A stretch of DNA of 32,000 bases, from contig CAYHAA010000003.1 of the NCBI GenBank assembly GCA_964354495.1, forward strand, positions 160,507 through 192,506, given 5' to 3'. Below are positions 27,603 to 31,657 of the stretch, one piece after another; within the stretch, counting starts at the first letter, position 1, and the number at the start of each line of letters is the position of its first letter. A model generated the notes under the pieces. The model was not told where the DNA came from. It saw only the letters and a list, made by a program, of their open reading frames with translations, and did not search any database. This DNA is from an uncultured archaeon. Its GTDB lineage: Archaea > Asgardarchaeota > Thorarchaeia > Thorarchaeales > Thorarchaeaceae. Made by a program: the position numbers and the translations under genes.

Positions 27603-31657
<4,055 letters not shown>

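Follow-up and report, generated by a model that had tools for sequence, protein, structure and literature searches.

Archaeal introns of the tRNA type are defined by the bulge-helix-bulge motif (BHB), in which the splicing endonuclease EndA cleaves each bulge behind its second nucleotide, and EndA enzymes built from two subunits have a broad specificity. Introns of this kind in crenarchaeal cbf5 were reportedly described by Watanabe in 2002 and Yoshinari in 2006, the latter work being said to have linked a two-paralogue EndA to the splicing of cbf5 pre-mRNA in Crenarchaeota. The cbf5 pre-mRNA, which encodes a pseudouridine synthase, carries its BHB intron inside the coding sequence (Yokobori 2009, PMC2738675), and in the literature that we searched coding-sequence BHB introns are described only for cbf5 (PMC2738675), with no published BHB intron found in an RNA polymerase gene. 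For Asgard archaea, tRNA introns have been reported (PMC11291895; 10.64898/2026.10.13.758758), as has a two-paralogue EndA in most of their genomes (bioRxiv 10.64898/2026.10.13.758758). Here we analyze a 32,000-nt stretch of a thorarchaeal metagenome-assembled genome (MAG; 3.3 Mb, 51 contigs, 97.7% complete, 3.8% contamination), hereafter the window (contig CAYHAA010000003.1, positions 160,507 to 192,506; G000:C3:160507-192506 in our numbering), in which a 30-nt insert on the minus strand (31522..31493) interrupts rpoA', the gene of the RNA polymerase subunit Rpo1N. The names of closely related proteins assign the organism to Thorarchaeota. We consider it likely that this insert is an archaeal BHB intron of the tRNA type in the rpoA' pre-mRNA, an essential message that the cell very probably has to splice.

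Like the cbf5 intron, the rpoA' insert is short, lies inside a coding sequence and is defined by a BHB motif, its host lineage has a hetero-oligomeric, two-paralogue EndA, and its occurrence is patchy, close relatives having gained or lost it. Unlike cbf5, the host gene encodes the catalytic subunit of RNA polymerase, the host phylum is Thorarchaeota (Asgard), the intron appears to travel on a foreign gene-end cassette, and splicing, which was shown for cbf5 by reverse transcription PCR, is for rpoA' what we infer from the DNA. With tRNA-type BHB introns the insert shares the 4-bp helix, the two 3-nt bulges and presumably the enzymes, and it falls into the same size class of about 30 nt as the tRNA and 16S rRNA inserts of this genome. 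It differs from tRNA-type introns in that the substrate would be an mRNA, with exon halves of the motif that are made of codons and would constrain synonymous sites (ATA, CCC/CCG, AGC/UCG).

A stop-bearing insert with BHB geometry in rpoA'

On the minus strand of the window, the rpoA' reading frame opens at ATG 31657 (MISGL...) and continues for 45 codons (M1..D45; exon 1, 31523..31657, within an open reading frame (ORF) of 31520..31657) up to the motif GYPID, where TAG, eight further codons and TAA precede SGIMDPKLG. The insert itself (31493..31522, UAGAAUCUGGAUUUCCCAGUUUCUCUAUAA) is unique in the genome and is not a repeated element, the best other genome match spanning only 17/18 nt (E 0.18). 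Gene callers would begin exon 2 (S46..E885 plus stop, 28970..31492) at ATG 31483, and the mechanically called long ORF (28970..31483) indeed comprises 837 aa, with the Met of SGIM as its first residue. Removing the insert would yield 45 + 3 + 837 = 885 aa, equal to the uninterrupted relatives, with a predicted spliced junction of GAU|AGC (CCCAUAGAU|AGCGGCAUC) and GYPIDSGIMDPK as the peptide across it. Among the 21 intron-less genomes of the same genus, which we read base by base, the rpoB stop abuts the rpoA' ATG, and the 21 proteins contain an uninterrupted GYPI[DE]SGIMDPKLG and measure 885 aa; the predicted spliced product has the same junction and length. An earlier, sequence-only reading of this DNA had placed the insert at 31493-31522 with stop codons at both ends and had derived from it an in-frame PID-SGI junction and an 885-aa product: the coordinates and stops proved exact when the frame was re-read, and the product agrees with all 21 relatives.

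The predicted RNA around the insert can be drawn as a BHB motif. The 5' strand of the central helix, AUAG (31525..31528), consists of the Ile codon AUA and a G of exon 1, and pairs at 4/4 positions with the 3' strand CUAU in the intron (31495..31498). Bulge 1 (A31524 U31523 / U31522) directly follows AUAG and would be cut as AU|U; bulge 2 (A31494 A31493 / A31492) directly follows CUAU and would be cut as AA|A. The intron hairpin h' (31499..31521) is composed of AGAAUCUGG (31521-31513), the loop AUUUC (31512-31508) and CCAGUUUCU (31507-31499), and its stem AGAAUCUGG/CCAGUUUCU is paired at 8/9 positions. The outer, exon-exon helix joins GGCUACCCC (31529..31537) to GCGGCAUC (31484..31491), the S-G-I codons that separate the 3' splice site from the internal ATG, with 5/8 positions paired. 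Applied to this geometry, which contains every element that the sequence-only reading had drawn, including a partial outer helix, the cut rule, which leaves no parameter to adjust, would excise exactly 30 nt and join GAU|AGC.

The sequence-only reading had also raised the possibility of an assembly error. The insert site is covered by contigs from two other studies with 0 differences and no indel variant, namely a 1912-nt contig (X5) identical over 31100-31818 and a 530-nt contig (X6) identical over 31284-31784. As two metagenome studies recovered this same DNA independently, the insert is real and not an assembly error. The interrupted gene exists in a single copy and is subject to strong purifying selection. 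A second rpoA' was not found in the genome, the sole other match being a 40-codon fragment. Comparing nt 181-2160 of the spliced coding sequence with the intron-less sister genome G012 gave proportions of synonymous (pS) and nonsynonymous (pN) differences of 0.26 and 0.0135, respectively (pN/pS 0.05), and for exon 1 the corresponding values were pS 0.73 and pN/pS 0.03. Other classes of intervening sequence were tried and rejected: an intein or another translated insertion is ruled out by the stops at both ends in G000 (the genome of the window), by three stops in L033 and by the frameshift in the 29-nt variants described below, and a group I or group II self-splicing intron by the insert length of 29-33 nt, compared to a ribozyme core of hundreds of nt.

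Seven variants of the insert and a covarying stem

Class-wide, 78 of the 87 species genomes could be matched, and a stop-bearing insert was present in only three, G000, G007 and G063, making the intron rare (3/78 species). Additional lineages were reached through the protein collection, by way of gene calls truncated to 836-837 aa and of short ORFs corresponding to exon 1. In this way we obtained six further insert variants from other Thorarchaeota lineages, located at the same codon boundary as in the window, for a total of seven. The 30-nt insert of G007 (L004) has one difference to that of G000, which abolishes the second stop; L047-L049 share a 30-nt insert (UGAGAGCUGGACUUGCCAGUUCUCCUAUAG); the P0077 lineage (L033-L035 and L043, four samples) has 33 nt with three in-frame stops; and L044, L045 and L046 carry inserts of 29 nt each, which shift the frame. 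Because the 29-nt variants shift the frame and several variants carry 2-3 stops, the insert cannot be translated. Pattern scans of genome contigs and of metagenome contigs with the 3' intron-exon word found matches only in G007 and the P0077 lineage.

Excision according to the BHB rule leaves an open frame and the canonical junction in all seven variants. The AUAG strand and the two 3-nt bulges are kept throughout, the central helix is paired at 4/4 positions in four variants and at 3/4 in three, with the remaining three of its four pairs invariant, and the outer helix reaches 7-8/8 in four variants and 6/8 in L045. To quantify the pairing, we wrote the BHB structure by hand onto a MAFFT alignment of the seven variants and used as controls the same structure with its 3' partners slid by 1-3 columns. 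Paired cells amounted to 90.2%, compared to 33-49% in the slid controls, and nine pairs were changed on both sides, compared to 0-3 in the controls. Compensatory changes were seen in all 8 intron-stem pairs, across an exon divergence of about 20%, and RNAalifold found the stem and the outer helix independently. Related genomes thus contain the intron with the covarying stem for which the sequence-only reading had suggested testing them.

The flanking codons also appear to be adapted to the helices, as supported by two features of the exons. For the Ile codon within AUA-G, 7/7 intron-bearing genes use ATA and 21/21 intron-less genes use ATT or ATC; the third positions of the adjacent Pro and Asp/Glu codons vary freely. 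Furthermore, the outer pair adjoining the central helix covaries, switching between C-G (Pro CCC, Ser A|GC) and G-C (Pro CCG, Ser U|CG).

A second rpoA' insert of 31 nt, a frameshifting length, is present in L044 and L045 at APQLIVE|DLWELLQYH (L044:3885-3915; L045:3840-3870). It has a central helix GUAG/CUAU (CUAC in L045), 3-nt bulges and a 5-bp h', and in L044 its excision by the same rule also restores an open frame and canonical junction. Besides the mini-introns, rpoB of L044 (1624 aa) and L045 (1631 aa), as well as rpoA' of L045, carry inteins (PF14890). Downstream of rpoA' in the window, the genes rpoA'', L30e and NusA follow in the usual archaeal order. In the P0077 lineage a TnpB-like gene (Cas12f1-like_TNB) lies between rpoA'' and the L7Ae/NusA genes (L033:8110-9849; L034:5632-7371), and another TnpB-like gene is located near the rpoB operon of L047.

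Weighing splicing against alternative explanations

A number of observations weigh against splicing of rpoA'. The outer helix of G000 is weak (5/8), rendering its motif somewhat relaxed, and a mismatch at the first pair of the central helix, A.C in G007 and A.A in L044 and L046, makes those motifs relaxed as well. The folding energy is no better than that of shuffled sequences (minimum free energy (MFE) -12.9 kcal/mol, z = 0.23; RNAfold), and in 6/7 variants the BHB conformer lies 1.4-6.5 kcal/mol above the predicted MFE; that of G000 is iso-energetic with it (-11.7 vs -12.0 kcal/mol). The seven variants probably share one origin and hence are not independent. Finally, the contigs from the metatranscriptome runs X20 and X25 all belonged to other species (90-95% identity): one reads GFPIDMGLMDP and clearly stems from a species without the insert, and one stops at 31486, its own contig end. 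Taken alone, the geometry and energy of G000 are only suggestive. The insert stands above chance because there are seven homologous variants with covariation, and the case for an intron is much stronger than in the sequence-only reading because these variants differ in length (29, 30 and 33 nt), share a covarying stem and are flanked by adapted exon codons.

An in-frame ATG 9 nt past the insert in 7/7 variants likewise speaks against splicing, and invites the thought that rpoA' is a split gene, in which the 45-aa piece and the 837-aa remainder from ATG 31483 would assemble in trans and the hairpin would serve as an intercistronic element. Two further points are in its favour: splits of archaeal RNA polymerase subunits are known from other cases (A'/A'', B'/B''), and exon 1 is by itself under purifying selection. 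Nevertheless, we regard it as unlikely. Across the seven variants the S-G-I codons ahead of this ATG change only synonymously (AGC/TCG, including a switch between the two serine codon families, GGC/GGT/GGA and ATC/ATT/ATA), which argues that they are translated. All intron-less genes conserve this Met to the same degree, so that it is no adaptation to the insert; no Shine-Dalgarno-like GGAG lies 20 nt or less from ATG 31483, in contrast to AGGAGA (31671-31666) ahead of the true start ATG 31657; and a start codon is absent behind the second insert of L044 and L045. The constancy of S-G-I, the lack of a Shine-Dalgarno-like sequence at ATG 31483 and this second insert favour splicing over separate translation. 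A split gene would, moreover, leave the 4-bp helix with its two 3-nt bulges, the ATA codon and the exon-exon covariation unexplained.

Very unlikely, in our estimate, is that the insert, at the level of DNA, represents a scar or a site at which the island described below recombined, without an RNA function of its own, with the gene either expressed in two pieces or decaying. The insert lies 15 nt from the left breakpoint of the island, and all three insert-bearing species genomes of the class (G000, G007 and G063) have both an island and a displaced exon-1 copy. Between rpoB and rpoA' of four intron-bearing lineages (L033, L044, L045 and L046), however, a displaced copy of exon 1 is absent, and for this reason the intron is not merely an island scar. 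Nor does a scar account for a stem that covaries over some 20% exon divergence, or a decaying gene for the pN/pS of 0.05 in the only rpoA' of a 97.7% complete genome. The chances of translational recoding, by ribosome hopping over the insert or by readthrough, seem slimmer still. Phage T4 gene 60 is translated by such a bypass, with matched take-off and landing codons, and the rpoA' insert resembles it as a short untranslated gap in an essential coding sequence, immediately following a stop codon; in G000 its length is a multiple of three and the stop directly follows a potential take-off codon. Unlike in gene 60, take-off codons (GAU/GAA/GAG) and the last codons before resumption (UAA/CAA/UAG/AUU) form no matched pair, the variants differ in length and frame, and the structure is a BHB motif and not a take-off hairpin. 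Readthrough is countered by the frameshifting 29-nt variants and the three in-frame stops of L033, and a changed genetic code does not fit inserts among which all three stop codons occur. It is hardly credible that the insert arose as an artefact of assembly or sequencing, or that it belongs to a dead allele within a mixed population. The source is a MAG with the fragmentation and contamination given above, yet the contigs of the two other studies are identical and free of indel variants, and the same architecture recurs in G007, in L047-L049 and in the P0066 contig.

Splicing machinery and further inserts in the genome

The sequence-only reading had called on EndA and RtcB for the processing of rpoA', and both are encoded. 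The two EndA paralogues that we found, in the regions G000:C7:64948-65196 and C6:24745-25002, measure 188 and 212 aa, and both contain an N- and a C-terminal domain (PF01974 twice above cut-off); RtcB is present as well (PF01139, 588 bits). In the mechanism that we propose, AUAG of exon 1 would pair with CUAU of the intron, and the resulting helix would be flanked by the two 3-nt bulges, the intron hairpin and the weak exon-exon helix. The splicing endonuclease would then cleave both bulges behind their second nucleotide and RtcB would ligate GAU|AGC, so that the mRNA would encode the normal 885-aa subunit; without splicing, only a 45-aa peptide could be made.

Judged from their sequences, inserts of about 30 nt that would need removal from RNA are common in this cell. 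ARAGORN found only 33 tRNAs and called an intron in 19/33. It assigned G000:C3:32379-32484 to tRNA-Glu(UUC), with an intron of 30 nt in the anticodon loop and with A33. Removal of a 29-nt BHB insert by the same rule as in rpoA' would instead give tRNA-Met(CAU), whose anticodon stem is then the best and whose loop is a canonical CUCAUAA, and standard tRNA callers likely misassign this gene. In the 3' part of the 16S rRNA gene (L050, G000:C31:12600-13317, minus strand), a 30-nt insert splits the universal AAGUCGUA|ACAAGG, with additional inserts close by. A whole-genome Rfam search for small-subunit rRNA had missed the 16S gene, the 3' part of which was then traced to C31 through a motif. When the genome was scanned for BHB motifs that, once removed, would fuse two open frames, 6647 hits were returned, compared to 6349 expected by chance, and this filter is too unspecific. 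As side observations, the 16S 3' region also contains about 70 extra nt near model positions 1290-1320 and lacks an intact GGAUCACCUCC end, and within the window ARAGORN called a tRNA-Met gene with a 42-nt intron at 1289-1418 (G000:C3:161795-161924).

A probably foreign exon 1 acquired with an 8.4-kb island

One aspect of the genomic context escaped the sequence-only reading: exon 1 and the intron appear to be foreign, having arrived with an 8.4-kb island, and the apparent native exon 1 is found next to rpoB, outside the window. A second copy of rpoA' codons 1-40 is located at G000:C3:200457-200589, directly after rpoB, and ends with TYDED-HI-stop. The two exon-1 copies are separated by the island, which is inserted between rpoB and rpoA' (G000:C3:192164-200589; L036) and carries a 1228-aa ORF, an ABC-2 transporter pair and small ORFs. 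Its right end in the window (31658..32000, minus strand) comprises an AT-rich leader, AGGAGA and the 3' end of the 1228-aa ORF (stop near 31981) and must supply the predicted rpoA' promoter; the sequence upstream of the rpoA' start is homologous in G007 and L047. The 1228-aa ORF (minus strand; L036:585-4271 = G000:C3:192487-196170, its 3' end at 31981-32000 of the window) lies directly upstream of the replacement start, shares 82% identity with the 1198-aa ORF that occupies this position in G007, and has a 1197-aa counterpart at the equivalent place in the P0066 contig, which also has a 1295-aa ORF before a broken rpoA''. The 1228-, 184- and 177-aa ORFs of the island had no match in Pfam, NCBIfam or the ESM-Atlas. 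The same architecture was seen in G007, in L047-L049 and in the P0066 contig; in G007 and the L047/G063 lineage the cargo is partly different, with an ABC-2 transporter common to all.

Comparison with intron-less sisters suggests which copy is native. In G000, the rpoB-adjacent copy matches G012 at 111/120 positions and the exon 1 in use at 99/120; in G007, compared to its sister G024, the displaced copy matches at 118/120 and the exon 1 in use at 97/120. By this measure the rpoB-adjacent copy is native and the exon 1 in use ('copy B') foreign. In G000 the foreign tract extends as far as roughly nt 180 of the spliced gene, in G007 to roughly nt 135-150. When the first 210 columns were left out, the gene tree placed G000 as sister to the intron-less G012 (100/100) and G007 within the intron-less clade with G024 and G015 (100/100), and the intron state requires at least three changes on this tree. 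The intron would thus not have been vertically inherited in the G000 lineage, and on the simplest reading a cassette of island, promoter, exon 1, intron and the first 45 nt or so of exon 2 recombined separately into the G000 and G007 lineages.

The left junction is located exactly at nt 120 (TYDED|) in P0124, P0125 and P0129 and one codon later in P0128; at the right junction there is a conversion tract that varies. As a hypothesis, this geometry would fit the repair of a break near the intron site, and it resembles double-strand-break repair in that the left end of the island coincides exactly with the end of homology and the right conversion tract varies. Two side observations concern the neighbouring genes: the displaced native exon 1 of G007 (L038 = G007:C420, after 5709) runs into an rpoA''-like fragment (...GTQMTLRT), and in the P0066 contig (P0125) rpoA'' is split by a second island of about 8.7 kb. 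Taken together, the arrangements suggest repeated rearrangement among RNA polymerase genes.

Whether the mini-intron is itself part of a mobile gene-end-replacement cassette, with homing-like spread among Thorarchaeota, seems to us doubtful. Under such a scenario, a break would arise near codon 45 of an rpoA' that lacks the intron (site GGCTATCCTATCGAT|TCGGGTATCATGG), an allele with the island would serve as template for its repair, and the repair would copy in the island, the promoter, the foreign exon 1 and the intron, which then would disrupt the target site. Integrative islands can replace the end of their target gene, as do elements at tRNA genes and at the dusA 5' end, and endonuclease genes borne by introns or inteins home. 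The rpoA' island is like such gene-end-replacing islands in that the native 5' end is displaced and a diverged functional copy is supplied, and unlike these and homing elements in that no integrase, homing endonuclease or TnpB is recognisable among its proteins. A search for guide-like matches to the intron-less junction gave only 13-nt spans at chance level and a 16-nt exon-2 match on C11 (E 0.03), and we know of no mobility mechanism that BHB introns have of their own. If the scenario were true, a mobile cassette would represent a new route for BHB introns between genomes, by which an essential polymerase gene was made dependent on splicing.

Discussion

According to these data, an intron of the endonuclease type has probably entered the gene of the catalytic RNA polymerase subunit of an Asgard archaeon, a member of the group closest to eukaryotes. 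If the rpoA' message is spliced, building the transcription machine would depend on the enzymes of tRNA splicing; the coupling of transcription capacity to EndA and RtcB activity, which the sequence-only reading had proposed, is speculation. Splicing would also mean that standard annotation truncates an essential gene, as that reading had expected, and public calls of 836-837 aa, together with fragments of 42-72 aa, exist for these lineages. Furthermore, the RNA structure would constrain the synonymous sites of the flanking codons. Finally, the link to a horizontally acquired cassette would offer a concrete route by which introns may enter and spread in protein genes, and this route would bear on the origin of interrupted genes in the archaeal relatives of eukaryotes.
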